Numbered from the stretch's first letter, positions 1 to 18,820 are shown. The stretch is DNA of 64,000 nucleotides from Brachybacterium sp. (GCF_036379615.1 NZ_DASVGJ010000060.1:105310-169309); one strand, 5' to 3'. Translations and numbers: made by a program. The notes: generated by a model from the letters alone, not told the origin.

Positions 1-2
1 TC

Positions 3-326
<324 letters not shown>

Positions 327-356
327 TCCGCCGCCGGTCGACGTGCTGCGAGCTAG

Positions 357-465
357 CGAGCGGCAGGAGACCGGTACAGGGATTCCCGCCTCACGGCTGA
401 CTCCTGCCGCTCGTACCCGAGCGCATGACGGGCCCCGATCCTCTCCGGAGGGTCGGGGCCCGTCG
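357..465 (+). terminator. Double hairpin after groEL (also repeat copy 1)
   Basis: 13-bp stem 357-369/401-413, then 17-bp stem 427-443/448-464 (one G-U pair, loop TCCG); lies between convergent groEL and tetR. Confidence 0.8.
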
Positions 466-1104
466 TCATGTCCGGGGGATCGGGGGTCCGGCCGGCCGTT
501 CGTGACGCGCCTGCGCCGTCCAGCCCGCCGCGCGGTCCATGACCGTGCGGTGCAGGTCCTCGAAGGCGGCATCGGCGTGCTCCTCGTCCCCCGTCACGAG
601 CAGCTCGGCCATGAGGCCGCGGAGCGCGCTGAGCACCCAAGCGGACATCGCGGCGGCCTCGTCCGCCGGGCAGCCCGCGCGCGCGACCCCTGCCGCGAGA
701 GCCTGCGCGCGTTCGCCCATCGAGCGCGCGACGGCGGCCCGGACCGCGGTCTCGGAGTACATCGAGATGCCGGTGAGCTCGACGAAGAGCCGCACGTGCT
801 GCCGGCCGTGCGGGGTGCGGGCCCGCTCCCAGATGTCTCGCAGGGGATCGGGGCGATTGTCTGCCTCGAGGTCGGGCAGGCTCAGGGCGCGGGCGATCGC
901 CGCGTCGACGACCTCCGCCACGAGCGCCTCCCGATTCGAGAAGTGGTGCAGCAGCGTCGCATGGCTGATCCCCACCGATCGGGCGAGGGTGCGCAGGGAC
1001 AGCGATCCGACGCCGTGCTCGAGGACGTGTGCGGTCGCCGCGGCGACGATCTCGCCGCGACGGTGCTCGAAACGGCGACGTCGGCCGTCGATGTGATCGG
1101 TCAT
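466..1104 (-). CDS. TetR/AcrR-family transcriptional regulator
   Basis: MTDHIDGRRRRFEHRRGEIVAAATAHVLEHGVGSLSLRTLARSVGISHATLLHHFSNREAL is a TetR N-terminal HTH; ATG at 1104 within track ORF 466..2268. Confidence 0.9.
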   Translation of the reverse strand: MTDHIDGRRRRFEHRRGEIVAAATAHVLEHGVGSLSLRTLARSVGISHATLLHHFSNREALVAEVVDAAIARALSLPDLEADNRPDPLRDIWERARTPHGRQHVRLFVELTGISMYSETAVRAAVARSMGERAQALAAGVARAGCPADEAAAMSAWVLSALRGLMAELLVTGDEEHADAAFEDLHRTVMDRAAGWTAQARHERPAGPPIPRT

Positions 1105-1157
1105 GTCCCCCGTATACCACCGGATGCCGATCGCGGGACACCCCTGGCATCTGCCTA

Positions 1158-1169
1158 TACCGATCGGTA
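1158..1169. promoter_or_regulatory. Perfect 12-bp palindrome, candidate TetR operator
   Basis: TACCGATCGGTA in the divergent tetR/hydrolase intergenic region. Confidence 0.55.
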
Positions 1170-1245
1170 GAGTCACTTCTGGCGCGATGCAGCGCCCCCG
1201 GGACCGCCGGGCCATCCTCCCTCCACGAGCCACCGAGGAGACGTC

Positions 1246-2118
1246 ATGCACACACGCACCCGTCAGGTCAGCGCTCTGCTGGCAACCCTGATCGTCATGC
1301 TGGGAACCCTGTCGCTCACCCAGGCCTCGGCCCTGGCCGACAGCGGGCACCAACGGGGTCCCGATCCCACGCAGCAGAGCATCGAGGCCACGCGCGGCAG
1401 CTTCGACATCGACTCCACCAGGGTGTCCTCGCTGAGGGTCCGCGGCTTCGGCGGCGGCACCATCTATTACCCGACGTCCACGGCGGAGGGGACCTTCGGG
1501 GCGGTCGTCATCTCTCCGGGGTACACGGCGGGCCAGTCGAGCATCGCGTGGATGGGCCCCCGCTTCGCCTCCCAGGGCTTCGTGGTCTTCACGATCGACA
1601 CCAACTCCCGCTACGACCAGCCCTCCTCGCGAGGCGATCAGCTGCTGGCCGCCCTGGACTATCTCACCGACAGCAGCGCCGTCAGCGACCGCATCGACCC
1701 CCAGCGCCTGGCCGTGATCGGGCACTCCATGGGCGGGGGCGGGACCCTCGAGGCCGCGAAGGATCGGCCCGAGCTGAAGGCCGCCGTGGCGATGACCCCG
1801 TGGAACCTCGACAAGTCCTGGCCGGAGATCTCGACCCCCACCCTCGTGGTCGGCGCGCAGAACGACTCGGTCGCCTCCGTGCGCACCCACGCCGTGCCGC
1901 TGTACGAGGGGATCCCGGAATCGACCGACAAGGCCTACCTGGAGCTGCGTGGCGCCTCGCACCTGGCGCCGAACCGTTCGAACACGAGCATCGCGAGCAC
2001 CAGCATCGCCTGGCTCAAGCGATTCGTGGATGACGACGTCCGCTACGATCAGTTCGTCTGCCCCGGACCGCAGACGGGCCTCACCTGGAGCGATGCCAGG
2101 TCCACCTGCCCGTTCTGA
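1246..2118 (+). CDS. Secreted cutinase / PETase-like polyester hydrolase (alpha/beta hydrolase, Streptomyces lipase/Thermobifida cutinase family)
   Basis: Signal peptide; PGYT oxyanion loop; GHSMGGGG nucleophile; TPW; QNDS acid; ASHLAPN His; C-terminal CPGP...STCPF cysteine pair; RBS GAGGAG. Confidence 0.93.
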   Translation: MHTRTRQVSALLATLIVMLGTLSLTQASALADSGHQRGPDPTQQSIEATRGSFDIDSTRVSSLRVRGFGGGTIYYPTSTAEGTFGAVVISPGYTAGQSSIAWMGPRFASQGFVVFTIDTNSRYDQPSSRGDQLLAALDYLTDSSAVSDRIDPQRLAVIGHSMGGGGTLEAAKDRPELKAAVAMTPWNLDKSWPEISTPTLVVGAQNDSVASVRTHAVPLYEGIPESTDKAYLELRGASHLAPNRSNTSIASTSIAWLKRFVDDDVRYDQFVCPGPQTGLTWSDARSTCPF

Positions 2119-2144
2119 CCCCGCGTCAGCCGGCGGTGACGCGC

Positions 2145-2239
2145 GCGGCAGGAGGTGATCCCGCCTCAGGGATGACTCCTGCCGCTCGCCCCGAGCGTTC
2201 GACGGGCCCCGATCCTCTCCGGAGGGTCGGGGCCCGTCG
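2145..2239 (+). repeat. Direct-repeat copy 2 of the post-groEL double hairpin; probable terminator of the hydrolase gene
   Basis: 2201-2239 is identical to 427-465 (39 bp); the upstream GCGGCAGGAG...CTCCTGCCGC stem is also conserved. Confidence 0.85.
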
Positions 2240-2266
2240 CTGTGCTCGACCGGGCACGATGTGTTC

Positions 2267-2725
2267 ATGACCTATGAGCTCCAGGAATCGATCATCGTCC
2301 CCGCCACCACGCAGGAGGTCCACGCGCTGGTCAGCGACGTCACCCGCACGGGGGAGTGGAGTCCGCAGTGCCACCGCTGCGAGTGGGAGGACGAGCGGCG
2401 CGGGAAGGGCGCCCGCTTCGTCGGGCACAACCGCACCCCGCAGCGGGAGTGGGAGACGGTCTCCGAGGTGATCGCGGACGTCCCCGGTGAGCACTTCGCG
2501 TGGTCCGTCGGCCCGGGCCGCGCCGAGTGGGGGTACCGGATGCGTCCGGTCGACGGCGGCACCGAGCTCACCGAGTACACGCGCACCACGCCGTCCTTCG
2601 AGGCGGTCTTCGCCGAGCGGTACGGAGATCGCGCGGAGGAGGAGATCCAGGTGCGCCACGAGGCCGCGCGCACCGGGATCCCCGCCACGCTCGAGGCGAT
2701 CCGGGGCGTGCTCGCGAACGGCTGA
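2267..2725 (+). CDS. SRPBCC (START/polyketide cyclase-like) family protein
   Basis: IIVPATTQEVHALVSDVTRTGEWSPQC...GARFVGHN...FAW...WGY pattern typical of actinobacterial SRPBCC proteins. Confidence 0.85.
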   Translation: MTYELQESIIVPATTQEVHALVSDVTRTGEWSPQCHRCEWEDERRGKGARFVGHNRTPQREWETVSEVIADVPGEHFAWSVGPGRAEWGYRMRPVDGGTELTEYTRTTPSFEAVFAERYGDRAEEEIQVRHEAARTGIPATLEAIRGVLANG

Positions 2726-2993
2726 GTGGCCGCACCCACCCGAGGCCGCCGAGCAGCCGACGACGCCCGTCCACCATGGCTGGACATCTGGATCTACGTA
2801 TTCCGTGAGGGGAGACGGAAGTGGAATGTGGGGCCGCCCTGGGGCGGCGTCGTCGGCGAGGCTTGCGCGTCGACGCGCAGGGAAATCGGCAGTCATTGCA
2901 AAGAGTCGGCTGTCACCTGCGGCGATGGTCGAGAACTGCAGAGGGCGCCCAGGGTTCGACGGTGCTCAAGGATAGTTTCCAGGGCGTCCGGCA

Positions 2994-3022
2994 TTGAGTC
3001 GGAAGGTGACCTGGGTTAGTGT
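2994..3022 (+). promoter_or_regulatory. Sigma-A-type promoter of the hisD-like 1 operon
   Basis: TTGAGT (2994-2999), 17 bp, TAGTGT (3017-3022); an ATG follows at 3029, suggesting a leaderless start. Confidence 0.5.
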
Positions 3023-3033
3023 ATGCGTATGCA
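3020..3033. promoter_or_regulatory. LacI-type operator, site 1
   Basis: TGTATGCGTATGCA matches palindromic consensus TGYATRCGYATRCA fully; overlaps the -10 and start. Confidence 0.7.
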
Positions 3034-4351
3034 CATGAGTTCACTGGACAAAGAGCTGCTCGGAGCGCGCGTCCGCGTCGTCAAGGAATCCGGCGTCCCG
3101 GATCGTTCGGCGCAGTCGGATCCCGAGGTGGAGGCGACCGTCTCCCGGATGCTCTCCGAGATCGAGGCCGAGGGCATGGATGCCGTGCGCCGCTACGCGC
3201 GCGAGCTCGACGGCGACCGCTCCGACAGCTTCCTGATCAGCTCCCCGCAGCTCGAAGCGGCGGGCGAGGAGCTCCCCGAGAGCCTCCGCGAGGCCCTCCG
3301 TGCGGGGGCCGAGCGCACCGGACGGTTCGCGACGTTGCAGCGTGAGCGGCTGCTCGACTTCGAAGAGGAGGTCGTCCCCGGGGTGGTCTGCGGTCAGCGG
3401 CACATCCCGGTCCAGAGCGTGGGCGCGTACCTGCCAGCGGGCCGTTTCCCACTGCTGGCCAGTGCCTTCATGACTGTCGGCGTGGCGGGCGTCGCCGGGG
3501 TGCCGAACCTCGTGGCCTGCACGCCGCCGAGCCGGGACGGCGTTGCGCACCCCGCGGTGCTCTACGCCGCGCACCTCTCCGGGGCCGAGCAGGTCTACGC
3601 GCTCGGAGGGGTCCAGGCGCTCGCCTCGATGGCCTTCGGTCTGCTCGACGCACCGCCGTCGGACCTGATCGTCGGCGCCGGCAACGCCTATGTCGCCGCC
3701 GCGAAGCGGCAGTTGTTCGGCCAGGTCGGGATCGACGTGCTCGCCGGTCCCTCCGAGGTGGCGGTCATCGCCGACGACTCCGCCCCCACCGAGATGGTCG
3801 CCGCCGATCTCCTCGGACAGGCCGAGCACGGACCGACCTCGCCCGCGTGTCTGGTGACCACCTCGGAGCGGATCGCCGCGGAGATCGAGGAGGAGATCGC
3901 ACGCCAGCTGGAGGGGCTCGACACCGCGAGCATCGCCGGTGCCGCCTGGCGGGACTTCGGCTCCGTTTACCTCGCCGAGGACCGGCGTGCCGCCGTCGAC
4001 ATCATGAACCTGCTCGCTCCGGAGCACCTCGAGGTGCTCGCCGAGGACCTCGACTGGTATCTGGAGAACCTCACGAGCTACGGCTCCCTCTTCCTCGGGC
4101 CCTGGTCCACGGTCGCCTATGCGGACAAGGGGATGTCCGGGACCAATCACGTCCTGCCCACCGGCCGCAACGCGCGCTTCACCGGCGGGCTGTCCGTGGC
4201 GGGCTTCATGAAGTGCGTGACCTACCAGCGCGCGACGAAGGAGGCCACGGCGACACAGGCCGAGCCCGTCGTGACCATCTCGGAGTTCGAGGGGATGCCC
4301 GCGCACCGGGACTCCGCCGCGCTCCGCCTCCGCATGCTCCGCTCCGGCTGA
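3029..4351 (+). CDS. Histidinol-dehydrogenase-family NAD-dependent dehydrogenase 1 (HpsN-like, probably non-biosynthetic)
   Basis: GAYLPAG, GAGNAYV, AGPSE, DLLGQAEHG, PEHL, ADKGMSGTNHVLPT motifs; start could be 3023, 3029 or 3035. Confidence 0.9.
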   Translation: MHMSSLDKELLGARVRVVKESGVPDRSAQSDPEVEATVSRMLSEIEAEGMDAVRRYARELDGDRSDSFLISSPQLEAAGEELPESLREALRAGAERTGRFATLQRERLLDFEEEVVPGVVCGQRHIPVQSVGAYLPAGRFPLLASAFMTVGVAGVAGVPNLVACTPPSRDGVAHPAVLYAAHLSGAEQVYALGGVQALASMAFGLLDAPPSDLIVGAGNAYVAAAKRQLFGQVGIDVLAGPSEVAVIADDSAPTEMVAADLLGQAEHGPTSPACLVTTSERIAAEIEEEIARQLEGLDTASIAGAAWRDFGSVYLAEDRRAAVDIMNLLAPEHLEVLAEDLDWYLENLTSYGSLFLGPWSTVAYADKGMSGTNHVLPTGRNARFTGGLSVAGFMKCVTYQRATKEATATQAEPVVTISEFEGMPAHRDSAALRLRMLRSG

Positions 4352-4421
4352 CCGCCGGGCACTCGATGTTCCGGGCCGCACCCGCGGTTCGCCGTCTCAC
4401 AACGCAGTGAAGGACAGCGAC

Positions 4422-5756
4422 ATGACAGTGCACTCCATCCTCCCCTCCGCCACCCGCCGCGCCGCTCTGGCGGGGCTAGGCCTGGCAGGGCTCGCGGGCC
4501 TCACGGCCTGCGGGGCCGGCTCCCGCAACCCTGCCGAGCAGGCGGCGAAGGTCGCCTGCGAGGTGCCGCAGCCGGACTCGGCCGTCACCATCAACGTGCT
4601 CGCCTACAACTCCTCGTCGATCGACCCGTTCACCAATACGCTGGTAAACAGTTGCACGTCGGGGAACATCACGCTTCGGCACGAGCCGATCGACTTCGCG
4701 GGACAAGTGCAGCGCACCCAGGCGACGCTCGCGGGCGAGACAGGCACGTACGACATCATTGAGACGTACAGCTTCGTGATCCCCCAGTTCGGGGACGAGG
4801 GCACTGTCGTCGGCCTGAACCAGTACCTGGAGGAGTTCGGCGAGGCGTACGGTCTCGACGCGCTGAGCGACGCGATGCTCGAGGCGATGACCTACGACGG
4901 CGAGCTCTACGCCCTGCCGATGCAGGCGCAGATGCACCTCATGGCGTACCGCCAGGACATCTTCGATGAGCTGGGCCTCGAGGCGCCCGCCACCTTCGAG
5001 GAGCTGAGAGCGGCGGCAAAGGCGATCCAGGAGGCGGGGGAGATCGAGCACCCGATCGCCATGCCGCTCAAGGCCGATGCCGATCTCGCCACCGCCTACG
5101 ACATGGCGCTGGGCAGCCTTGGGGTGGATATGACCGACGCGGAGGGGACGACGGGGAACTTCGACGCCCCCGAGGCCGCGCAGGCCTTCGAGGAGCTGAT
5201 GTCGCTCATCCCCTACATGGATCCGGAGGTCACGACCTTCGACCAGCCGTCCGTTCAGCAGCAGATGTACAACGGCACAGCCGCCATCGCGATCATGTTC
5301 TCGGGGCGCATGAACGACCTCACCATGGAGTCGAACACCGAGCTCGCTCCGCAGTTCGCGTTTGCCCCGCCGCCCACCGTCGTCGAGGGCGGGCACTACT
5401 TCGCCTCGCTCTCCGTGGACGGCTGGTCGATCCCGACCAACGCGTCGACTGACAAGGCCTCGCTGTTCCAGATGATCGCCTCATCGCTGAGCGAGGAGGC
5501 GTCCCGGGAGGCCGTTCCGGCCGCGTACCCCGCCCGCGAGGGCATGGTCGACGAGGACTCGAGTCCGTACGCCGTCGCCGCGAACACGACGATCGAGGAC
5601 GTCCCGCCCTCGGAGCCGTACCCCTGGACGGCAGAGCTCACGAACGCGATCACGCCGCTCATCGCGAGCGTCTTCCTCGAGCAGGTCTCCGTCGAGGACG
5701 GCCTGTCCCAGATGCAGACCACGAGCGCGGACCTGCTGGCCGCGTACTCGGGCTGA
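4422..5756 (+). CDS. Carbohydrate (CUT1) ABC transporter substrate-binding lipoprotein, Tat-type signal
   Basis: TRRAAL twin-Arg, lipobox LTAC, YALPMQAQMHLMAYRQDIF and APATFEEL motifs. Confidence 0.9.
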   Translation: MTVHSILPSATRRAALAGLGLAGLAGLTACGAGSRNPAEQAAKVACEVPQPDSAVTINVLAYNSSSIDPFTNTLVNSCTSGNITLRHEPIDFAGQVQRTQATLAGETGTYDIIETYSFVIPQFGDEGTVVGLNQYLEEFGEAYGLDALSDAMLEAMTYDGELYALPMQAQMHLMAYRQDIFDELGLEAPATFEELRAAAKAIQEAGEIEHPIAMPLKADADLATAYDMALGSLGVDMTDAEGTTGNFDAPEAAQAFEELMSLIPYMDPEVTTFDQPSVQQQMYNGTAAIAIMFSGRMNDLTMESNTELAPQFAFAPPPTVVEGGHYFASLSVDGWSIPTNASTDKASLFQMIASSLSEEASREAVPAAYPAREGMVDEDSSPYAVAANTTIEDVPPSEPYPWTAELTNAITPLIASVFLEQVSVEDGLSQMQTTSADLLAAYSG

Positions 5757-5792
5757 GCGCCGGAGCGCGACGATGGCGAAGGAAGGTGACGC

Positions 5793-6662
5793 ATGAGGCG
5801 TCGGGAGTACGCAGTGCTCGTCGCACCCAGCATGATCGTAATGTTCGGCCTCCTGGCCCTCCCGCTGCTGCGCACGCTCCAATGGAGCTTCCAGCGCGTG
5901 GACTACGGGCAGCCGGGCACCTGGGTCGGGCTGACGAACTACACCTCCGCGCTGGGGGATCCCCGGTTCCTCCGGGCGATCGGTTTCACGATCGGGCTCA
6001 CGGCGGCCACGTTCGTGGTGGTGGTGCTGATCGCATACGTGCTGGCGGTGCTGGTGAATCAGCTCGGTCGGATCCGTCCGCTGGTGCTGGGAACGCTGCT
6101 GGTGAGCTACGTGGTCCCCCAGGTGATCGGGGCGACGATGTTCGGATGGCTGTTCAACCCCAGCTTCGGCGGGGTCGCGAACCATCTGCTCACGCTGGTG
6201 ACCGGCGAGGACGTCCTATGGCTCACCGAGGCCTGGCCCAACCGTCTGCTGCTGCTCCTGTCCGTGGCCTGGGGCCTGATCCCTTTCGCGATGCTCGTCA
6301 TACTCGCAGGTCTGCAAGGAGTCCCAGAGGAGATGCTCGAGGCCGCGGAGCTCGACGGCGTCTCCACCCTCCAGCTCCATCTGAAAGTCATCGTCCCGAC
6401 CATCCGGGGCGTGCTCGGCTTCGTCTCGCTGATCCTGATCATGGATGTGCTGCGAGTCTTCGATCAGCTCATTCCCCTGTCCCCGCAGGCGGTCCAGATC
6501 GGGAACGAGTCCGCGATGCTTTACATCTACAACATCGCCTTCCGCGACGGCGGCCAGCAGCTGGGGCTGGGCAGCGCCGTCAACATCCTCCTGATCGTCG
6601 TCATCTTCATCCTCCTGCTCCCGTTCCTGCGCGGAACGGCGAAGGAAGGGGCCCGCGCATGA
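5793..6662 (+). CDS. Sugar ABC transporter permease (MalF-like)
   Basis: Multiple TM segments; EAA loop LQGVPEEMLEAAELDG. Confidence 0.93.
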   Translation: MRRREYAVLVAPSMIVMFGLLALPLLRTLQWSFQRVDYGQPGTWVGLTNYTSALGDPRFLRAIGFTIGLTAATFVVVVLIAYVLAVLVNQLGRIRPLVLGTLLVSYVVPQVIGATMFGWLFNPSFGGVANHLLTLVTGEDVLWLTEAWPNRLLLLLSVAWGLIPFAMLVILAGLQGVPEEMLEAAELDGVSTLQLHLKVIVPTIRGVLGFVSLILIMDVLRVFDQLIPLSPQAVQIGNESAMLYIYNIAFRDGGQQLGLGSAVNILLIVVIFILLLPFLRGTAKEGARA

Positions 6663-7543
6663 GCTCGACCCGTCCCGCGAGGCAGAGGAACGCGGCCTCA
6701 GGGCGCCGACGGCGCGCAGGCGGCGCAGGAGGAGTGAAGCGCCTGCTGATCGGCATGTTCCTGCTGCTGTTCTGCCTGATGATGCTGTCCCCGGTGCTGT
6801 GGACGCTGGCGTCGGTCACCAAGCCGACCAACGTCGCCTTCCTGAACCCACCCGTCTTCACCTGGATTCCCACCCTGCAGGCGTTCGTCGACCTGTGGCA
6901 GACGACGAACTTCTACCTCGACCTCCTCAACACCGTCATCGTGGCGGTCGCCTCGACGATCGCCGCGCTGGTGCTCGGGATCCCGGCGGCGTACGCGCTC
7001 TCGCGCTTCCCCGGCTGGATCTCCGCCCTGCTCCTGGTGGTCGCCCTGATCTTCCGCGCGCTGCCGCGGTTCTCGATCCTGCTGCCGATGTATGACCTCG
7101 CACAGCAGCTGGGCATCTACGACACCCGCTTCGCGGTGGGGGCGGCGCTGGTCGCGATCAACCAGCCGTTCTCCATCTGGCTGCTGCGCAACTTCTTCGC
7201 CGAGATCCCGAGCTCCCTCGACGAGGCGGCGATGATCGACGGATGCAGTCGCTTCCAGACCCTGCTGCGCGTGATGATCCCGCTCATGGGGCCGGGGATC
7301 CTCACCGCCGGGATCTTTATGTTCCTGTTCGCGTTCCAGGAGTACCTCACGGCCGTCATCCTCAGCAACGTCGACGCCCGGACCGTCCCGGTGTTCATCG
7401 CGACTCAGCTGGGCCAGACTCTGCCCATGCTCCAGCAGGCGGGGGCGGCGTCGGTGCTGCTCACGCTGCCCGTGATCGCCTTCGCACTGATCGCGCAGAA
7501 GTACATGGTCGCCGGCCTCAACGCCGGATCGGTGAAGGGATGA
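6659..7543 (+). CDS. Sugar ABC transporter permease (MalG-like)
   Basis: ATG 6659 overlaps the previous stop (ATGA); EAA loop FFAEIPSSLDEAAMIDG. Confidence 0.93.
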   Translation: MSSTRPARQRNAASGRRRRAGGAGGVKRLLIGMFLLLFCLMMLSPVLWTLASVTKPTNVAFLNPPVFTWIPTLQAFVDLWQTTNFYLDLLNTVIVAVASTIAALVLGIPAAYALSRFPGWISALLLVVALIFRALPRFSILLPMYDLAQQLGIYDTRFAVGAALVAINQPFSIWLLRNFFAEIPSSLDEAAMIDGCSRFQTLLRVMIPLMGPGILTAGIFMFLFAFQEYLTAVILSNVDARTVPVFIATQLGQTLPMLQQAGAASVLLTLPVIAFALIAQKYMVAGLNAGSVKG

Positions 7544-7568
7544 GGCGTCAGCGGGGGAGGAGCCGACG

Positions 7569-8261
7569 GTGACCGCGGAGATCCCCGTCGTCCTCCTGCC
7601 GGGGATGAACTGCACCCCACGGCTCTGGGCGCCCGTCCTGCCCGCGCTGCGGGGGCGCACCGTCCACCACGGCGAGCTCCTCGGTGCCTCGCTCGAGCAG
7701 TGCGTGGAGAACCTGCTGGCCGTGCTCCCGGAGCGCTTCGCCCTGGCGGGGCTGAGCCTCGGAGGGATCGTCGCCATGGCGCTGCTGCGCACGGCGCCGG
7801 AGCGCGTCGACAGGCTCTGCCTGCTGGACACGAACGCTCGCGCGCCCGAACCCGTGCAGCTCGCGGCCTTCGCGCGTCAGCGCCGGAGGCTGGCGACCGG
7901 CGCCAGCGCTCAGGAGGTGCAGAGGGAGCTGCTGGACGTGCTCGTCCATCCTCGGCATCTGTCCCGGCTCGGGCGCGAGGTGGTCCGGATGGGGGAGGAG
8001 ACCGGCGTCGACAGCCTCGCCCAGCAGTACGCGATCCAGGGCACGCGCCGGGACGAGCGCGATCATCTGCCCGGCATCGGGGTTCCGGTCTCCGTCGTTG
8101 CGGGCCGGGACGATGCGCTCTGTCCGCCGGAGCGGCACGAGGAGATCACGGCCCTGGTGCCCGACGCCACCCTCCGGCTCATCCCGCGCACCGGGCACCT
8201 GTCCCCCCTGGAGAGCCCGACCGAGGTCGCGAAGTCGCTGGTGGCCTGGTTGGAGCGCTGA
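7569..8261 (+). CDS. Alpha/beta-fold hydrolase
   Basis: LLPGMNC, GLSLGG nucleophile elbow, GRDD, GHLSPLE; RBS GGGGAGG. Confidence 0.9.
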   Translation: MTAEIPVVLLPGMNCTPRLWAPVLPALRGRTVHHGELLGASLEQCVENLLAVLPERFALAGLSLGGIVAMALLRTAPERVDRLCLLDTNARAPEPVQLAAFARQRRRLATGASAQEVQRELLDVLVHPRHLSRLGREVVRMGEETGVDSLAQQYAIQGTRRDERDHLPGIGVPVSVVAGRDDALCPPERHEEITALVPDATLRLIPRTGHLSPLESPTEVAKSLVAWLER

Positions 8262-8296
8262 GAGCACCCCTCCGGGCGGCGCTGCCCGCCCTGTTC

Positions 8297-9034
8297 TCAG
8301 CGATCTGACCTGGCCAGTCGGGAGAAGCTCGCCATCATGTGTGCTGCGAGGTTGTGGACGATCAGGCGGCAGCCCTGGGCAGAGGCAGCGTCAGCGCCGC
8401 CGAGGGTGGAGACGATGTCGGTCCGGACCGCGCCGGCCTCCCGACCGGCCCGATGCACCGCGTCCGTCAGCTGCGCGAGCGTACGGGTCTCCGCCTCGTC
8501 GTGGGCCAGGGCGAAGGCGAGGTCCCCGGGCCCGATCATGTACCCGTCGACCCCGGGGGTGGCGAGGATCGCCGGAGCGGCGTCCACGGCGGCGGGGGAC
8601 TCGAGCATCACCAGCAGGAGATGGTCCTCGGCGGCGGCGGCGTGCTCCTCGGCCGAACGGGTGCCGAACCGCCCGGCGCGCGTGTAGGTGGCGATGCCCC
8701 TCTCGCCCTGCGGGGGATAACGGGCCCAGCGCACCGCCTCCGCCGCGCCGGCCGGGTCGTCGATGTGCGGGACCACCGCACCGGCGGCGCCGAGGTCGAG
8801 AGCGCGCTGGATGACGTGGGGGTCGCGCTCACCGGGCCGGACCAGCACCGGCAGGCCGTGCACCTGTGCCAGGGCGAGGTGGTGCTTGAGCGCCGTGGCG
8901 TCGTGCGGGCCGTGCTCGAGGTCCAGCACCAGGAAGTCCAGGCCGGCCACCGCGAGCATCTCCACGGTGTCCTCCGCGGGCATCCTCAGCAGTGCTCCGT
9001 GCAGCGAGGAGGAGATGCTCACCAGCTCCCTCAT
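8297..9034 (-). CDS. HpcH/HpaI-family aldolase
   Basis: DFLVLDLEHG, ALDLGAAGAVVPHI, RYPPQGERG, MLES, IGPGDL; ATG at 9034 coupled to the SDR stop. Confidence 0.9.
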   Translation of the reverse strand: MRELVSISSSLHGALLRMPAEDTVEMLAVAGLDFLVLDLEHGPHDATALKHHLALAQVHGLPVLVRPGERDPHVIQRALDLGAAGAVVPHIDDPAGAAEAVRWARYPPQGERGIATYTRAGRFGTRSAEEHAAAAEDHLLLVMLESPAAVDAAPAILATPGVDGYMIGPGDLAFALAHDEAETRTLAQLTDAVHRAGREAGAVRTDIVSTLGGADAASAQGCRLIVHNLAAHMMASFSRLARSDR

Positions 9035-9825
9035 GCGACCATCCCCGCGGAGAGGTCCACGTCCGCCCCCGTCATCCCAGGCATGCCGAGGATCGAGTGC
9101 ACCGCGCCGGCGACCTCCTCCGGGGTGACCATGCGCCCCAGAGCGGCACGCCCGACGAAGGCCTGACGGGCCTCCTCCGGCGTGATGCCGCGGCGTCTCG
9201 CCTCGGCCCGGTAGTTGTGCTCCATGCGCTCGCTCTCCACGGGGCCGGGGGACAGTGCGTTCACGCGCACACCCCCGCGCCCCGCCTCGAAGGCGAGCGT
9301 GGAGGTCAGGCCCAGCACGGCCATCTTGGAGGCGCAGTACGGGGTGCGACCCTCGAGAGGGCGCTTGCCGGAGACGGAGGCCAGGTTGATGATGTCGCCC
9401 GCGCCGCGGCGCATCATCCCGGGGAGCAGGGCACGGCACATGAGGAACGTGCCCCGCACGTTGACGGCGAAGACCTCGTCCCACTCCTCCGGATCGATGT
9501 CGACGAGATCTGCGACGGGGCCGCCGATCCCGGCGTTGTTGACGAGGATCGAGACGTCCTCGTCCCTGAGCCGCTCGGCAAGCGCTGTGACGTCCTCCGG
9601 GGAGGAGACGTCGCAGGGGGCGGGGAGCACGGCGCCGGGGTGCACGGCGGCGAGCTCTTCGAGCGGTGCCGGCCGACGGCCGACGGCGATCACGCGAGCG
9701 CCCGAGCGCACCAGGCGCGCGGCGATCGCCCGTCCCAGCCCGGTGCCGGCGCCGGTCACCACGGCCGTCCGGTCGGCGAGGTCCTCGGTGCCTGCGTGCT
9801 CGCCCGAATCCGTGCCTGTGACCAT
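9031..9825 (-). CDS. Short-chain dehydrogenase/reductase (SDR)
   Basis: TGAGTGLG Rossmann motif, NNAG, NLAS, YCASK catalytic YxxxK. Confidence 0.95.
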   Translation of the reverse strand: MVTGTDSGEHAGTEDLADRTAVVTGAGTGLGRAIAARLVRSGARVIAVGRRPAPLEELAAVHPGAVLPAPCDVSSPEDVTALAERLRDEDVSILVNNAGIGGPVADLVDIDPEEWDEVFAVNVRGTFLMCRALLPGMMRRGAGDIINLASVSGKRPLEGRTPYCASKMAVLGLTSTLAFEAGRGGVRVNALSPGPVESERMEHNYRAEARRRGITPEEARQAFVGRAALGRMVTPEEVAGAVHSILGMPGMTGADVDLSAGMVA

Positions 9826-9828
9826 GCC

Positions 9829-11148
9829 TCAGCCCTCGGCCTTCGCCGCGGTGATCCAGTCGACGGGGTCTCCGCCGTGCAGGTGGGCGCGCAGGTCCCC
9901 GGAGCGTGCATGGCCCTCGAACCGCTCGACGCGCGCGGCGCGCCCGCACAGCCGTCCGAGCTCGGCGCTGGTCCGCGGAGAGGTGACCTCCTGGTACGTG
10001 ACCGTCTTGAGGTACTTCCCGACCCACAGGCCGCCGGTGTAGCGGGCGGCGCCGCGGGTGGGCAGCACATGGTTGGTGCCGATGACCTTGTCCCCGTAGG
10101 AGACGCACGTGTTCTCACCGAGGAACAGCGCACCGTAGTCGTGCAGGCGCTCCAGTGCCTGTCGCGGCTCGGCGGTCATGACCTGGACGTGCTCGGCGGC
10201 GTTCTGGTCCGCGAGATGCCACAGCTCGTCCATGTCCTCGGCGATCTCGATGCGCCCGTGGTCGCGCCAGGCCGGGCCGGCCATGTCGCGGGTGGGCATG
10301 TCCACCAGGAGCCGCTCGACGATCTCGAGCACCTCTGCGGCCTGGGCCTCGTCCGTGGTGATCAGGACGGCAGGGGAGTCGGGGCCATGCTCTGCCTGGG
10401 AGAGGAGGTCGACGGCGATGGTGAACGGGTCCGCCGTGCCGTCGGCGAGGATGAGCACCTCTGTCGGGCCGGCGAAGAGGTCGATGCCCACCTCGCCGAA
10501 CAGGAGGCGCTTCGCCTCGGCGACGAAGGCGTTCCCGGGGCCCGCCAGCAGATTCACCGGCGCGATGGTCTCGGTGCCCACGGCGAGGGCGGCCACCGCC
10601 TGCACGCCGCCCAGGACGTAGATCTCGTCGGCACCGGCGCTGCGCATGGCGGCGATCGTCGCCGCCGGGATCTCGCCCATGATCGGAGGGGTCGCCGCAG
10701 CCACCCGCTCGACGCCGGCGACCTTCGCGGTCACGATCGTCATGTGCGCGGAGGCGGTGAGCGGATAACGACCTCCCGGGACGTAGGAGCCGGCGCTCCG
10801 GATCGGAACGTGCGTGTGTCCGAGGAGCACCCCGGGCTGGGTCTCGATCTCGAGGTCCGTGAGCGTCCCGCGCTGCGCCTGCGCGAACTGCCTGACGGAG
10901 GCCTGCACAGTGCCGATGTCCTCGAGCGTCTGCGCGCTCAGCGGCGCGATGATCCGCTCGATTTCCTCGTCCCCCAGGCGGAACGAGTCGGGGGACCACG
11001 AATCGAACCGCTCCGAGTACCGGCGGACCGCCTCGTCTCCGTTGCTGCGGATGTCCTCGATGATCTCCTGGACGCGACCGGAGAGCTCGCGGGCCTCCGT
11101 GCGGCCGCTCCCACCCTCACCCGTGGCGGCCTTGAGCACCTTCACCAT
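9829..11148 (-). CDS. Histidinol-dehydrogenase-family dehydrogenase 2 (HpsN-like)
   Basis: YVPGGRYP, GPGNAFV, AGPTE, DLLSQAEHG, AEHV, YGDKVIGTNHVLPT, EGH; RBS AAGGAGG. Confidence 0.92.
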   Translation of the reverse strand: MVKVLKAATGEGGSGRTEARELSGRVQEIIEDIRSNGDEAVRRYSERFDSWSPDSFRLGDEEIERIIAPLSAQTLEDIGTVQASVRQFAQAQRGTLTDLEIETQPGVLLGHTHVPIRSAGSYVPGGRYPLTASAHMTIVTAKVAGVERVAAATPPIMGEIPAATIAAMRSAGADEIYVLGGVQAVAALAVGTETIAPVNLLAGPGNAFVAEAKRLLFGEVGIDLFAGPTEVLILADGTADPFTIAVDLLSQAEHGPDSPAVLITTDEAQAAEVLEIVERLLVDMPTRDMAGPAWRDHGRIEIAEDMDELWHLADQNAAEHVQVMTAEPRQALERLHDYGALFLGENTCVSYGDKVIGTNHVLPTRGAARYTGGLWVGKYLKTVTYQEVTSPRTSAELGRLCGRAARVERFEGHARSGDLRAHLHGGDPVDWITAAKAEG

Positions 11149-11165
11149 CAGTACACTCCTCCTTT

Positions 11166-11179
11166 GGCATGCGCATGCA
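11166..11179. promoter_or_regulatory. LacI-type operator, site 2 (between divergent hisD-like 2 and lacI)
   Basis: GGCATGCGCATGCA, 13/14 match to TGYATRCGYATRCA; core GCATGCGCATGC is a perfect palindrome. Confidence 0.65.
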
Positions 11180-11257
11180 TGAAGTGCGGCAAGTGTGCCC
11201 GAGGTAGGCTCGGGGCGTCAAGGGGGCGGAGGCCTCTCGTTGCGAGGAGCAGGGGTG

Positions 11258-12271
11258 ATGATGGTCAGCAGCAAGGATGTCGCGCGCCTCGCAGGGGTCT
11301 CCCAGCCCACCGTCTCCCGGGCCCTGCGCGGAGACCCTCGCCTGACCGAGGCCACGAAGCAGAAGGTGCGCAGCGCGGCCGAGCAGCTCGGGTACTCGCC
11401 CAACGCCTTCGGTCGCGCCCTGGCGACCGGGCGCTCCACGCGCGTGGGCCTGCTCGTCACGGATCTCGACAACCACTTCTTCATCAACGTCCTCGCGGCG
11501 ATCCATGACGAGCTGGGTGGGAGTGGCCACGAGATGATCCTGCTGACGGAGTCCTCCGGGGCGGACGGGATCGAGGCGCGGGTCTCCTCCTTGGGGCTCG
11601 GTGGCGTCATCCTGGCGACCACGACGACCGCCTCGCTGCTGCCGATCCGGCTCGCGGACCGATCGATCCCGTTCGTCTACTTCAACCGCGTCTCGGAGCT
11701 GGTGGCCGCGGATTCTGTGCAGGTGGATCCCGAGGTCGGCCTCGGCGAGCTCGCGGCCGCCCTGGCGGAGCTCGGGCACGAGCAGGTCGGGGCGGTGCTC
11801 GGCCCCAGCAACACGAGCACGGGCGTGGCCCGGGAGTTCGCGCTGCGGCGGGCGCTCGCCGCTCATGGCCTGACGCTCCGCGATGAGAGCACCCGTCGCG
11901 GCGACTTCTCCGTGGAGTGCGGGAACCTCCTCGCCGGGGAGCTGCTCGACGCAGAGCGGCGCCCGTCGGTGATCGTCTGCGGGAACGACGACGTCGCCCT
12001 GGGGGCCCTGAACGCCGCGGCGGCCCGGGGTCTGAGGGTGCCCGAGGACGTGTCCGTGGTGGGCTTCGATGATCTGCCGACGGCGAGCTGGCCGATCGTG
12101 CAGCTGACGACCGTCCGCTACGACCTCGAGGGGATGGCCCGGGCGGCGGCTCGGGCGATGGTGCGACGGATGGAGAGTGTGCCGGGCGCCGAGGTTGAGC
12201 TCGAAGCCGTCGTGCTTCCCAGCTCGCTGGTGCGCCGACGCAGCCTCGGCGTCGCGCCCACCCGTTCCTGA
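11258..12271 (+). CDS. LacI-family transcriptional regulator
   Basis: SSKDVARLAGVSQPTVSRAL HTH, LGYSPN hinge, CGNDDVALG, SVVGFDD; start 11258 or 11261. Confidence 0.95.
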   Translation: MMVSSKDVARLAGVSQPTVSRALRGDPRLTEATKQKVRSAAEQLGYSPNAFGRALATGRSTRVGLLVTDLDNHFFINVLAAIHDELGGSGHEMILLTESSGADGIEARVSSLGLGGVILATTTTASLLPIRLADRSIPFVYFNRVSELVAADSVQVDPEVGLGELAAALAELGHEQVGAVLGPSNTSTGVAREFALRRALAAHGLTLRDESTRRGDFSVECGNLLAGELLDAERRPSVIVCGNDDVALGALNAAAARGLRVPEDVSVVGFDDLPTASWPIVQLTTVRYDLEGMARAAARAMVRRMESVPGAEVELEAVVLPSSLVRRRSLGVAPTRS

Positions 12272-12378
12272 CCGCGCATCGGCGAGAGTCCCCGTCCGCG
12301 CCCCTGCGCGGCACCCCGGGCGGCCCCCGTGCCCGCTCGACCGTCCGGCCGGCCCCTGCGAGATGAGCTGTCGACATG

Positions 12379-12407
12379 TTGACGAACCGTGTGCATACGC
12401 ATACCCT
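12379..12407 (+). promoter_or_regulatory. Sigma-A-type promoter overlapped by LacI operator site 3
   Basis: TTGACG (12379-12384), 17 bp, TACCCT (12402-12407); operator TGCATACGCATACC at 12392-12405; 12390-12404 is the exact reverse complement of 3021-3035. Confidence 0.7.
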
Positions 12408-12445
12408 CGTGACGAAGCACAGTCGCGACGAGGAGGAGCGAGTCC

Positions 12446-13447
12446 GTGAGTCTGGACCCGATTGCATATCAGCCGTACAGCGATCCCGATGAGTTCATCC
12501 GCGAGGTGACCGACCGGATCTGGGTCGGTCGGGACATCGACCACATCATTGAGAACTACGAAGAGGATTCGATCGTCCACGGGAGCCTGGGGACGACCGT
12601 CGGCCGCCAGGGCGTCATCGACGGCACCACGATGAGGATCGCGACCGTCCCGCAGCACGTCGGGGTCGCCGAGGACGTCATCTGGGAGCAGAGGGGAGAG
12701 GACGCCTTCCTCAGCTCGCACCTGGTCTTCTCCAGTGACGAGCACATCGTCGACGGTCGCCTGCGCCGGGTGCGCTCCCGCACCGTCGCCAACTGCCTCT
12801 ATCGGCGGGGGCGGATGGTGGAGGAGTGGGTGGTCCGCGACTCGCTCGCGGACTGCCTCCAGCGGGGGATCCCTCCGGAGGAGGCCGCTGCGGAGATGCG
12901 ATTCGTCGGCCACGAGGGCTCCTGGACGCAGCAGTCGCCCGCGGACCCGCTGCGCAGCGGCGAGAGCGGACCGCGGCCCAGCACCGCGAACGCCAGCTGC
13001 GCGATGGTGCTGGACATGATCGAGGAGGTGTGGAACAAGCGGCGCCTAGATCAGGTCCACGAGTACATGGTCCGGGACCTCTTCCTCCACACCGTCGGCG
13101 ACTCCACCGTCCTGCGCCCCGAGGGATATCAGAAGGACCTGCTCTCGCTCATCGCCCCGTTCACCGACTGCCGGTTCTCGGTGCGGGACGTCCAGGCCCA
13201 CGACCATCCGGACTACGCGGGCCTGCGGGTCGCCGTGCTCTGGCAGATGACGGGCGTCTACGCCGGCGTCCCCTCGTTCGGCCCGCTCACGAACGCGCCG
13301 GTCGATCTGATGGGCGTCTCCCAGTTCCTTATCCAGAACGGACGGATCGTTCGAGAGATCCGGGTCTATGACGAGATCGCCCTGCGCGCGCAGATCGCCG
13401 TCCACCAGGACGAGAACTCCTCGATGATCGGCACCAACATCTACTGA
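12446..13447 (+). CDS. Tandem SnoaL/NTF2-like (ester cyclase-like) domain protein
   Basis: Two repeated units (..DRIWVGRDIDHIIENY.. and ..EEVWNKRRLDQVHEY..) each ending in MVEEWVVRD / IVREIRVYDE strands; RBS GAGGAGG. Confidence 0.75.
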   Translation: MSLDPIAYQPYSDPDEFIREVTDRIWVGRDIDHIIENYEEDSIVHGSLGTTVGRQGVIDGTTMRIATVPQHVGVAEDVIWEQRGEDAFLSSHLVFSSDEHIVDGRLRRVRSRTVANCLYRRGRMVEEWVVRDSLADCLQRGIPPEEAAAEMRFVGHEGSWTQQSPADPLRSGESGPRPSTANASCAMVLDMIEEVWNKRRLDQVHEYMVRDLFLHTVGDSTVLRPEGYQKDLLSLIAPFTDCRFSVRDVQAHDHPDYAGLRVAVLWQMTGVYAGVPSFGPLTNAPVDLMGVSQFLIQNGRIVREIRVYDEIALRAQIAVHQDENSSMIGTNIY

Positions 13448-13549
13448 CGCCCCACCGGCAGGCCTCCGCCGGCACGCCGCCGGTGGCCCATCGGCCGCAG
13501 CGCCGCACCCCCGCATCCGCACCTCGACACCCGCCACAGGAGCAACGCC

Positions 13550-14698
13550 ATGACCACGACCGCCCCCTCCGGCACCGACGCCGCGAGCCGCACCATCCTC
13601 CGCACCGACTGGGTCCCCTGCAAGACGGCCTTCATCGACACCAGGACGCCGGGCTCGGACCAGAAGGACAACTACTCCTTCATCGGCCCCGGGGTCAGCC
13701 AGAACTCCGACCAGTTCGTGAACATCGCCGAACCCCACGGCTTCAACATGGGCGCCGCCGGCATGCCGCACGGTCTCGTCAACAGCCTTCACCTGCACTT
13801 CACCGCCGAGGTGTTCATCAACTTCGACGGCGACTACCTGCTGCGCTGGGGAGCCGAGGGGGAGCAGGGGACGTACCGGTCCCTGGACGGCGACATCATC
13901 TCGGTGCCGCCGTGGGTCTTCCGCGGCTTCACCAACGAGGGCTCCGGCGACGGCGTCCTGCTCACCGTCCTCGGCCAGGACCGCACCGGAGGCATCATCT
14001 GGGGGCCCAAGGTCATCGAGGAGGCAGGGAAGCACGGCCTGTACCTGTCCTCGGACAACCAGCTCGTGGACACGACACAGGGTGACTCGCTTGAGGGGGT
14101 CGAGCTCATCGAGCCGATGCCGCAGGCGGAGATCGATCGGCTCGACGTCGTGACCGAGGAGCAGTTCGCGACGCGGGTCACCAGGCCGCAGGACCGTGTC
14201 TGGCAGGAGCGGCCGTTCCTCTGCTCGGTGCTGCCGGGCGGTCGTGCCGAGCTGTCCCTCATCATCGGGTACGGCCTCACCGAGCAGGTCCGTGACGTCC
14301 CGCGCCTGCACGATCCGCACTCCTTCACCGTGGCGTGGCTGCGGGCGGCGCAGGGGGAGGGCATGCTCGAGCACACGATCGACCGTCACCAGGTGCTGGT
14401 TGCACGGACCGGGAGCTGGGAGGTCGCCTTCGAGACAGAGGAGGGCCTGCAGACTGTGGAGCTGAACCGGCTCGACGCGGTCTCGATCCCCCCGGGCGCG
14501 CGTCGTTCCCTGAAGGCCCTGGCGGCGGGCGAGGACGGCACCTCTGAGATCCTCGTCGTCGTCGAGGGCGACGGCCGAGCGCATCAGCGGTGGAGCGATG
14601 AGGTGGTCGCCGCGGCGCAGGATGCCGGTTGGGTGCTCGATCCCAACGGTTACGTCGCGCCCTCGGCGCTGCTCGCGAACTCGCCGACCCCGCGCTGA
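13550..14698 (+). CDS. Uncharacterised bicupin-like protein
   Basis: SLHLHFTAEVF (HxH..E cupin motif 1), GDIISVPPWVFRGFTN (motif 2 variant), second degenerate cupin DAVSIPPGARRSL; RBS AGGAG. Confidence 0.65.
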   Translation: MTTTAPSGTDAASRTILRTDWVPCKTAFIDTRTPGSDQKDNYSFIGPGVSQNSDQFVNIAEPHGFNMGAAGMPHGLVNSLHLHFTAEVFINFDGDYLLRWGAEGEQGTYRSLDGDIISVPPWVFRGFTNEGSGDGVLLTVLGQDRTGGIIWGPKVIEEAGKHGLYLSSDNQLVDTTQGDSLEGVELIEPMPQAEIDRLDVVTEEQFATRVTRPQDRVWQERPFLCSVLPGGRAELSLIIGYGLTEQVRDVPRLHDPHSFTVAWLRAAQGEGMLEHTIDRHQVLVARTGSWEVAFETEEGLQTVELNRLDAVSIPPGARRSLKALAAGEDGTSEILVVVEGDGRAHQRWSDEVVAAAQDAGWVLDPNGYVAPSALLANSPTPR

Positions 14699-14705
14699 GC
14701 GCATC

Positions 14706-15548
14706 GTGGACGGTGACCCCGTGCTGCGCGCGGCGGCCTGCCAGCTGCGCATCGACATCGACGCGCCGACACCGTTGGAGGAGATCGAACGGACCGTCGC
14801 GGACGCGGCCGGCGCCGGAGCGCGGCTGATCGTCCTCCCCGAGCTCGCACTGAGCGGATACGTGTTCCGCTCGGGTGACGAGCTGGAGGAGCTCGCGGAG
14901 CGGCCCGACGGACGCACCGCGGCGTTCGCTGCGCGGGTCAGCGCCGAGCACGGCTGCGTCCTCGTCGCGGGGTTCCCGGAGCGGGACGGCGCCCACGTGT
15001 GCAACAGCGCCGTGATCGCCGATCGGGGCGAGGTGCGCGGGATCTACCGGAAGGTGCATCTCTGGGACGAGGAGAAGCTCCTCTTCACGCCCGGGGACGG
15101 GCCGCCCCTGGTGGTGGACACGAGCCTCGGGCGGGTGGGCGTGATGATCTGCTACGACGCGGAGTTCCCCGAATGGGTGCGACGCGCGGCCCAGGATCGG
15201 GTCGACGTCCTCGCCGTGCCGGTCAACTGGCCGCTGATGCCCAGACCGGACGGCCAGGTCGCGGTGGAGGTCGCCAAGATCAGGGCGGCGGCCGCCGCCT
15301 ACCGGGTGCCGATGGTCGTCGCCGACCGCTGCGGCCGCGAGCGCGGCACCGACTGGGTGGGCGGGAGCCTGGTCGCCGACGCCGGCGGATACCTGCTGGC
15401 GGGTCCCGCGACCACTGACGGGACGGCGGCGGCGGCGACGGTCATCGCCGACATCGATCTGCGCGACGGGCGGTGCAAGGCCCTCACGCGGCAGGCGCAC
15501 GTCTGGGGCGACCGGCGGCCGGCGCTCTATGGGGACGACGACCGGTGA
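14706..15548 (+). CDS. Nitrilase-superfamily carbon-nitrogen hydrolase
   Basis: Triad motifs VLPEL (Glu), YRKVHL (Lys), MICYD (Cys); GTG start at 14706 inferred. Confidence 0.9.
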   Translation: MDGDPVLRAAACQLRIDIDAPTPLEEIERTVADAAGAGARLIVLPELALSGYVFRSGDELEELAERPDGRTAAFAARVSAEHGCVLVAGFPERDGAHVCNSAVIADRGEVRGIYRKVHLWDEEKLLFTPGDGPPLVVDTSLGRVGVMICYDAEFPEWVRRAAQDRVDVLAVPVNWPLMPRPDGQVAVEVAKIRAAAAAYRVPMVVADRCGRERGTDWVGGSLVADAGGYLLAGPATTDGTAAAATVIADIDLRDGRCKALTRQAHVWGDRRPALYGDDDR

Positions 15549-15741
15549 CCCGACGACGTCGCGGGAGGACGGGCTCAGCGGGGCGACCTCCGCGGCGGGG
15601 CGTGCTCGCCGGTCGCTGACGATCGGCCGGGAAACCTCCGGCAAGAGCAGGCGCCCTCCCTCCTCCGCGGACATCATGGCTGGTGAAACCCGTCGAGGAG
15701 GCCGCGTGCCGACTCCTCGACGCCTTGAGGAGGAGGAGCGA

Positions 15742-16815: not shown

Positions 16816-17387
16816 GCGCGCCGCGCAGAAGGATCGTCCAGGGCCTGACCTGGATCAGCATCGCGCTGTTCGTGGTGCTCGTGCTGGTGGTGATGTGGCA
16901 GGTGTTCACCCGCCAAGTGCTGCAGGCCCCGAGCGCCTGGACCACCACCGTCTCCCAGTACCTGTTCATCTGGCTGGTGCTCTTCGCGGTCGCGATGGTG
17001 TTCGGAGAGCGGGGCCATGTGGCGGTGGACTTCCTCGCCCGCCTGCTGCCGCGGCCCGCGCAGCGCGGCACGGCGATGCTCGTCGAGGTCGCGATCCTCG
17101 CCTTCGCCCTCCTGGGCCTGGTCTGGGGAGGGATCCGAGGCATGTCGATCTCCTTCGACCAGGCGATCCCGGGCCTGCCGGTCACGGTCGGGCAGATGTA
17201 CCTGGCCCTGCCGGTAGCGGGCGTGCTCATCGCCCTGTTCGCGCTCGAGGACCTCGTGCGCGCCGCGCGCGGCGAGGACATGCTCGGCGGCGACGACGCC
17301 CAGGCCGAGGCGGCGCTCGAGGCCGCCGGTGCGGACACGACCGACGGCACCTCCCCGACCGGCCCGACCACGCAGAAGGGAGCCTGA
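16812..17387 (+). CDS. dctQ: TRAP transporter small permease
   Basis: 4 TM; QVFTR, WL, HVAVDF motif. Confidence 0.92.
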   Translation: MSAPRRRIVQGLTWISIALFVVLVLVVMWQVFTRQVLQAPSAWTTTVSQYLFIWLVLFAVAMVFGERGHVAVDFLARLLPRPAQRGTAMLVEVAILAFALLGLVWGGIRGMSISFDQAIPGLPVTVGQMYLALPVAGVLIALFALEDLVRAARGEDMLGGDDAQAEAALEAAGADTTDGTSPTGPTTQKGA

Positions 17388-17390
17388 GCC

Positions 17391-18710: not shown

Positions 18711-18753
18711 CCCGCCGGCGCGGTCTCACGGCGCGGCCGTTCCGCGCGACCAC

Positions 18754-18796
18754 CGATCCCCGCATCCCTCTGCGGCGCAGAGGGATGCGGGGATCG
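18754..18796. terminator. Bidirectional hairpin terminator between dctM and ecfT
   Basis: Perfect 20-bp inverted repeat 18754-18773/18777-18796 between convergent genes. Confidence 0.8.
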
Positions 18797-18820
18797 TCGT
18801 GCCCGGGGCCTGCACGATGC

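Follow-up and report, generated by a model that had tools for sequence, protein, structure and literature searches.

Three adjacent operons grouped around a lacI-family gene in Brachybacterium sp. raise the question of whether their dehydrogenase, transporter and hydrolase genes form a single regulated system and, if so, which protein controls it. The stretch of DNA analysed, hereafter the window, comprises 64,000 nucleotides (GCF_036379615.1 NZ_DASVGJ010000060.1:105310-169309) and is actinobacterial, with 71% G+C. A 14-bp palindrome, TGYATRCGYATRCA, lies on the promoters of the three operons as the sites O1, O2 and O3. We consider it very likely that these sites are the operators of the LacI-family protein encoded between the operons (11258-12271, plus strand, 337 aa), which would repress all three of them until an effector releases it, constituting a local regulon.

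O1 (3020-3033; no strand applies to the sites) reads TGTATGCGTATGCA, with no mismatch to the palindrome. It heads the first operon, where it extends from the last three nucleotides of the putative -10 box across the predicted transcription start into the hisD1 start codon. O2 (11166-11179; GGCATGCGCATGCA, one mismatch) belongs to the spacer from which hisD2 and lacI diverge and is upstream of both genes, at 18 nt from the hisD2 ATG, where it adjoins the ribosome-binding site GGAGGAG, and at 79 nt from the lacI ATG. O3 (12392-12405; TGCATACGCATACC, one mismatch) is located between lacI and snoaL within a -35/-10 spacer, and its right half supplies the TAC of the -10 box. All three sequences read exactly as the first-pass annotation had reported them, and direct comparison bears out its further statement that the 15 bp at 3021-3035 recur in exact reverse complement at 12390-12404 (GTATGCGTATGCACA). 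This agreement of O1 and O3 over 15 bp does not amount to a broader conserved palindrome, and a motif wider than 14 bp was rejected. In the motif built from 29 non-redundant sites, the information is restricted to the positions within ±7, with none outside; A and T at ±3 and ±2 are invariant and the central CG is 98% conserved.

When up to two mismatches to TGYATRCGYATRCA are allowed, O1, O2 and O3 are the sole three matches in the window. The shuffled window yields on average 0.48 such matches and none of 100 shuffles reaches three, a test that is partly circular in that the pattern was derived from the three sites themselves. At three mismatches, the window count corresponds to background (8 vs 6.6). 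The 4.26-Mb genome holds six sites with at most one mismatch, three of them inside this 9.4-kb stretch; six is not an unusual total, being reached by 11% of 2520 palindrome controls of the same composition. Clustering and non-coding placement, not the total count, are what stand out. A genome scan with the motif, which the first-pass annotation had proposed, was carried out with an independent matrix built from 20 sites, all from other genomes. It places O1 first (23.6 bits) and O3 second (20.3 bits) genome-wide, while O2 ranks fourth (15.9 bits), tied with a match inside the cox1 coding sequence. O2 alone would not be significant; it carries weight because its position in the hisD2-lacI spacer is conserved.

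The regulon is local and confined to this cluster, because the other genomic matches either fall in coding sequence, are devoid of the central CG or go with a different regulator. The match at C51:38506 lies inside the cox1 coding sequence, and that at C67:123978 is without the central CG. The match at C56:75207 (TGCATACGTATAGG, 16 bits) falls in an unusually AT-rich non-coding stretch and was set aside as a member. The match at C1:7124 belongs to another LacI with the helix VSIATVSR and TGTAAGCGCTTACA-type sites, adjoining the housekeeping hisD. In that region of the genome (G000:C1:5701-8300; L002 78-2669), the housekeeping hisD, recognisable by its GDY motif, is followed by this second LacI-family gene, which is preceded by two TGTAAGCGC(A/T)T(A/C)CA palindromes. 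They form an unrelated LacI operator pair, one of which is a single mismatch away from the motif studied here.

Comparative evidence comes from loci with LacI orthologues, gathered from reference genomes and metagenomes, among which the nearest relatives of the window's LacI are found in the same genus and in Propionibacteriaceae metagenome-assembled genomes. Thirteen such loci (37-69% LacI identity) keep the motif in the same spacers, and wherever a related locus includes the orthologous spacers, the motif is present there. In G007, a genome of the same genus (LacI 69% identical), the whole cluster is syntenic and all three sites are kept in the same spacers (locus L105, positions 1368, 9478 and 10658). 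The motif is also kept in Propionibacteriaceae and metagenome loci in which LacI is only 37-57% identical. Sites orthologous to O1 occur at L105:1368, L007:489, L009:557, L010:3281 and L106:16471. L006-L010, L017, L022-L024 and L105 carry TGCATACGCATAC(A/C) as the O3 equivalent in the corresponding spacer, and the O2 core CATRCGYATG is found in the same spacer of every orthologous locus. In the Propionibacteriaceae-type loci (LacI 53-57% identical), the lacI-snoaL spacer always holds TGCATACGCATACA, the hisD1 start carries (G/T)GTATACGTATGCA, and the hisD2-lacI spacer reads (G/A)ACATACGTATGCT, with the core intact and three mismatches at the rim. These loci have an additional site ahead of the gene for the ABC solute-binding protein (SBP); no operator is present in the 55-bp hisD1-SBP spacer of the window. 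In G048, which belongs to another family (LacI 46% identical), the gene order is rearranged, and cupin, hisD2 and hisD1 are each still preceded by a site. The shared operator, conserved at the same spacers and even in this rearranged genome, supports the earlier proposal that the scattered genes form one system. A metagenome locus (L028, 2939-2965) carries two operator copies in its hisD-lacI spacer that overlap by one base (TGCATACGTATGCTGCATACGTATGCA).

The position of the sites relative to promoter-like hexamers suggests how the regulator would act. O1 and O3 had been described as overlapping TTGAGT-17-TAGTGT and TTGACG-17-TACCCT promoters; the hexamers are present and the overlap is conserved in relatives. 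The putative hisD1 promoter (2994-3022, plus strand) consists of TTGAGT (2994-2999), 17 nt and TAGTGT (3017-3022), a layout that recurs with TAATGT in G007 and as TTGTCA-17-TACGGT or TACTGT in L007, L009 and L010. The putative snoaL promoter (12379-12407, plus strand), with TTGACG (12379-12384), 17 nt and TACCCT (12402-12407), is identical in G007, and L006-L010 carry TTGTCA-18-TACACT. The near-invariance of the asymmetric O3 across lineages fits a double constraint as putative operator and -10 box. On the hisD2 side, a conserved TTGACG (11216-11221, minus strand) is the putative -35 box, judged by the occurrence of TTGAC(G/C) upstream of the operator in the window, L017, L018, L006, L009, L010, L024-L026, L028, L030 and L063. 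On the hisD2 strand, the operator starts downstream of the TTGAC hexamer at a distance, counted from the first base of the latter, that varies with the lineage from 6 to 44 nt: L030 and L063 have it in the spacer, L018 and L028 have it over the -10 box, and in L006-L010 it coincides with the start site. O2 itself lies about 42 nt downstream of TTGACG and covers approximately +6 to +19 of the inferred transcript, likewise in G007; it overlaps no evident promoter and sits in the predicted early transcribed region. The overlap of operator and promoter is thus conserved though the spacing differs among lineages, and all arrangements would suit steric repression by promoter occlusion.

The start of hisD1 had earlier been placed at 3023, a choice that we revise. 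The ATG at 3029 is the only hisD1 start conserved in all orthologues, as is the N-terminus MH.., whereas L007 and L009 carry ATA at the position of the ATG at 3023; by conservation, 3029 is most likely the start. This ATG follows the -10 box by 7 nt and is part of the right half-site of O1. This points to a leaderless hisD1 mRNA that probably starts at 3029 and whose first codon would be part of the operator.

Among the alternatives, the one that fares best concerns the sign of regulation: LacI could be an activator or dual regulator, or depend on a co-repressor like PurR, instead of acting as a simple inducible repressor. PurR and CcpA bind DNA with their ligand (PMC4052901), and O2 lies approximately 44 nt upstream of a possible lacI start, an activator-like position with respect to lacI. 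However, a protein bound at O1 or O3, both of which overlap a -10 box and the start region, would keep the polymerase out, and the targets are catabolic and transport genes, for which LacI regulons are typically repressed until induced (PMC4052901). We therefore regard this alternative as unlikely. O2 may also affect lacI itself; autoregulation has been described for 72% of LacI-family members (PMC4052901).

Which protein binds the palindrome is indicated by the LacI protein itself and by its relatives. It combines an HTH_LacI domain (PF00356, 3e-16, residues 6-49) with an effector domain resembling periplasmic binding proteins (Peripla_BP_3 and Peripla_BP_1; PF13377, 1e-29, and PF00532, 2.5e-23), and aligns over its full length with CcpA and PurR structures. 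Its hinge NAFGRALAT (GRALA) aligns with NAVARGLAS (ARGLA) of CcpA (1zvv), and the hinge leucine L55 is invariant in eight orthologues. In PurR and LacI, the hinge-helix leucine inserts at the central CpG. The helix-turn-helix ARLAGVSQPTVSRALR, with the recognition helix VSQPTVSR, is invariant in eight aligned orthologues that are otherwise 46-69% identical. We compared 90 LacI loci, with paralogous LacI loci from the metagenome scan as a control and a site defined by at most one mismatch. A site is present in 22 of the 28 loci with a VSQ-helix LacI and in none of the 62 with other helices, which corresponds to 33 sites in 188 kb against none in 342 kb (Fisher 7e-16, for loci that are not phylogenetically independent). 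The operator thus varies in step with the helix, an indication that the neighbouring LacI is the protein that binds, and the palindrome is very probably the binding site of this LacI. Central-CG even palindromes have been recorded for 1173 of 1303 LacI-family regulators (PMC4052901), in agreement with the earlier description of such palindromes as typical LacI operators.

Central-CG palindromes are not exclusive to one family, and they could be bound by another transcription factor encoded elsewhere, with LacI recognising a different sequence. Such a factor would have to account for a motif that, in the 90 loci, goes together with the recognition helix of the neighbouring LacI and travels with the LacI gene into proteobacterial plasmids; moreover, the spacers show no other conserved palindrome, and the genome holds no further credible sites, unlike what is expected of a global regulator. 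This possibility appears quite improbable to us. Least credible of all is a reading of the repeats as coincidental matches, RNA hairpins or elements other than operators. In its favour, palindromes of 14 nt are able to fold, the folding of the O3 region surpasses that of most shuffles (z = -2.2), and six near-matches per genome are not rare for such a composition. Chance, however, is excluded by the conservation in orthologous spacers together with the ranks obtained with the independent matrix. The hairpin reading was rejected, as neither the O1 region (z = 0.57) nor the O2 region (z = 0.18) surpasses its shuffles in folding, positions 1-20000 contain no match to an Rfam family, and, according to the inferred promoters, transcription would leave out the greater part of O3 and the initial part of O1.

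Several observations weigh against the assignment of the three sites to this LacI. The score of O2 is no better than that of the chance match in cox1. Many of the related loci are close kin, and their counts overstate independence. Six VSQ-helix loci are without a site at up to one mismatch: L025 and L026 keep the core with three rim mismatches, and L019, L038, L046 and L070 have no site at up to two mismatches. The Ruegeria locus L102 shows no site in 15 kb. A consensus scan of positions 2800-12600 flagged none of the proposed promoters and no terminators; its threshold of at least 9 of 12 matches to the E. coli hexamers is too strict for the hexamers in question. A search of public sequencing runs for RNA-seq data that would map the transcription starts yielded DNA, metagenome or untyped contig-level entries and none labelled as RNA. 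The promoter and start-site assignments are inferred from the reading of hexamers and from conservation. Taken with these reservations, spacer conservation, helix tracking and the conserved promoter overlap support the view, already put forward in the first-pass annotation, that one LacI operator defines the regulon.

Based on these data, we propose the following hypothetical mechanism for repression by LacI, in which (i) a LacI dimer would bind each site via its helix-turn-helix (VSQPTVSR), with the hinge helices at the central CG; (ii) at O1, it would mask the last bases of the -10 box, the point where transcription starts and, the hisD1 mRNA being probably leaderless, its start codon as well; (iii) at O3, it would fill the -35/-10 spacer of the snoaL promoter and occupy part of the -10 box; (iv) at O2, it would sit just downstream of the hisD2 promoter; (v) bound LacI would thereby block RNA polymerase at the hisD1-ABC transporter-hydrolase, hisD2-SDR-aldolase and snoaL-bicupin-CN hydrolase-TRAP transporter operons; and (vi) a small-molecule effector, which may be the transported substrate or an early intermediate, would release the repressor.

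The genes concerned were assigned by Pfam and NCBIfam profile searches. The first operon, on the plus strand, comprises hisD1 (3029-4351), encoding an HpsN-like HisD-family dehydrogenase (Pfam Histidinol_dh, 1e-130), the SBP gene (4407-5756), two ABC permease genes (5793-6662 and about 6660-7543) and a gene for an alpha/beta hydrolase (7569-8261). Its genes after hisD1 (4407-8261) are syntenic in G007, L007, L009 and L010. The second, on the minus strand, consists of hisD2 (9829-11148), an SDR gene (9031-9825) and a gene for an HpcH/HpaI aldolase (8297-9034), the ATG of which overlaps the SDR stop codon as ATGA. In 24 loci, hisD2 and the SDR gene next to the LacI gene form the conserved core. 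The third operon, on the plus strand, starts with a tandem-SnoaL gene (12446-13447) and continues with genes for a bicupin (13550-14698), a CN-hydrolase (about 14598-15548) and the TRAP transporter components DctP (15529-16815), DctQ (16812-17387) and DctM (17391-18710). The tandem-SnoaL protein is without a solved or named relative, and the bicupin without a named family. The snoaL, cupin and CN-hydrolase genes are syntenic downstream of lacI in L006-L010, L022-L024 and L105; TRAP genes were not found by tblastn in L007, L009 and L010, which reach 3.6-10 kb past lacI, beyond the CN-hydrolase gene. The earlier statement that an operator stands upstream of all three transcription units holds for the three operons, but the number of units is four, lacI being a separate one. 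A LacI orthologue is present in 2 of the 37 genomes of the genus; the cluster is therefore accessory and forms an island.

The two HisD paralogues bear on what the regulon may do. Both are closer to the 2,3-dihydroxypropane-1-sulfonate (DHPS) 3-dehydrogenase HpsN (8v35, 8wwe; 355-384 bits) than to histidinol dehydrogenases (about 262 bits); for HisD1, the scores are 384 bits to CpHpsN (8v35) and 264 bits to HisD. HpsN is distinguished by the signature GRY(A/S)H, which includes the sulfonate-binding His126 (PMC11382572). At the corresponding position, HisD1 has GRFPL and HisD2 GRYPL, so that His126 is replaced by leucine in both, while the Asp-Lys pair is kept. The motif G(R/K)(Y/F)P(L/M) is found in all 24 LacI-linked homologues. 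Proteins of the HisD1/HisD2 type look like a third branch of the HisD/HpsN family, judging from these signatures, and might be mistaken for hisD or hpsN in counts. The genes between 3029 and 18710 include no suyAB, xsc or cuyA according to their Pfam assignments. As for the substrate or inducer, our guess is a hydroxyalkyl compound whose anionic group is not a sulfonate.

In its general design, the system resembles other local regulons of the LacI/GalR family, such as E. coli LacI-lacO, PurR and CcpA-cre and those of the RegPrecise collection (Ravcheev et al. 2014; PMC4052901). They share the combination of an HTH_LacI domain with a sensor resembling periplasmic binding proteins, the hinge-helix leucine, the even central-CG palindrome and the location of the operators at promoters of adjacent catabolic and transport operons, with the regulator inside the cluster. 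In contrast to the known LacI systems, the one described here has its own operator word, TGCATACGTATGCA, and the helix VSQPTVSR; its LacI, with 337 aa, is about 20 residues shorter than that of E. coli (360 aa), and one of the operators takes in the start codon of an mRNA that is probably leaderless. No relevant match to the operator strings (TGCATACGTATGCA, and TGYATRCGYATRCA for the window) was found in the searchable literature.

Another parallel is offered by the DHPS catabolism cluster hpsRNOUPsuyAB of Cupriavidus pinatubonensis (PMC11382572; locus L104), with hpsR as the regulator gene, and by hpsR (SPO0590) of Ruegeria pomeroyi (PMC4334477). As in the window, a LacI gene is divergent from the gene of a HisD-family four-electron dehydrogenase, which is followed by an SDR gene, central-CG palindromes lie in the spacer, and the cluster includes a TRAP or other transporter of the carboxylate/sulfonate type. 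However, HpsR is only 31% identical to the LacI of the window and has the helix VSMATVSR, the palindromes of the hpsR-hpsN spacer, TGAAAGCGCTTTCA and TGAAAGCGCTTACA, differ from the motif found here, the dehydrogenases of the window have GR(Y/F)PL and lack His126 of HpsN, and the cluster of the window contains tandem-SnoaL, bicupin and CN-hydrolase genes in place of suyAB, xsc or cuyA. Orthology to HpsR, and with it a DHPS regulon, was rejected on the grounds of the low identity, the different helix and palindrome and the absence of the signature histidine. On plasmid p2 of C. pinatubonensis (L104, 4849-4916), TGAAAGCGCTTTCA is a perfect palindrome, and the second copy, TGAAAGCGCTTACA, lies 54 bp away. 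Both are candidate HpsR operators by their sequence and position, and we found no description of them as such.

The loci with a VSQ helix include a proteobacterial sister clade with the helix VSQSAVSR(T/V)FT, which plasmids and chromids of the genera Roseibium, Ruegeria, Sinorhizobium and Variovorax encode. Although its regulators are only 31-38% identical to the LacI of the window, the same operator, TGCATACGTATGCA, stands directly upstream of a hisD2-like gene (52-54% identity) accompanied by an SDR gene, and genes for SnoaL, cupin, alpha/beta hydrolase and aldolase are often nearby, as they are here. The clade differs from the window in that the regulator gene is usually inside the operon and the transporters are of the TTT or ABC type; none of its members has been characterised. 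On a plasmid of Ruegeria sp. AD91A (L102), the cluster consists of genes for an ABC transporter, SnoaL, hisD, SnoaL, SDR, LacI, SnoaL, cupin, a SAM methyltransferase, a MetE-like protein, an alpha/beta hydrolase and the aldolase-type RraA, the methyltransferase and MetE-like genes being extra relative to the window. A plasmid of Variovorax paradoxus (L103) carries hisD, SDR and LacI genes with genes for TTT binding proteins, RraA, an aldolase and lactonases, and two operators 26 bp apart upstream of hisD.

In summary, our analysis describes a probable local LacI repressor with its own operator word, and the regulatory mechanism is that of a textbook, ordinary switch. The operator provides independent, sequence-level evidence that 15 genes in three divergent or convergent operons belong to one regulated system, and it ties together two HpsN-like dehydrogenases, ABC and TRAP transporters, SnoaL, bicupin, CN-hydrolase, SDR, aldolase and hydrolase. 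With slightly less than even confidence, we tentatively suggest that the VSQ-helix LacI clade and TGCATACGTATGCA mark one regulon across Actinomycetota and Alpha- and Betaproteobacteria, built on the third HisD/HpsN branch together with SDR, tandem-SnoaL, bicupin, hydrolase and aldolase. If this is true, there would be a widespread catabolic pathway for an as yet unassigned compound, some genes now called hisD or hpsN would be something else, and the operator-repressor pair would offer a practical handle for finding the inducer; repressor release in vitro could serve as a screen. The motif can help to separate these dehydrogenases from true hisD and hpsN, which matters wherever hpsN is counted as a marker of sulfonate degradation. 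Since the regulator clade, the operator and the hisD2-like core recur across phyla, the motif can also serve to trace the limits of this orphan pathway in further genomes.

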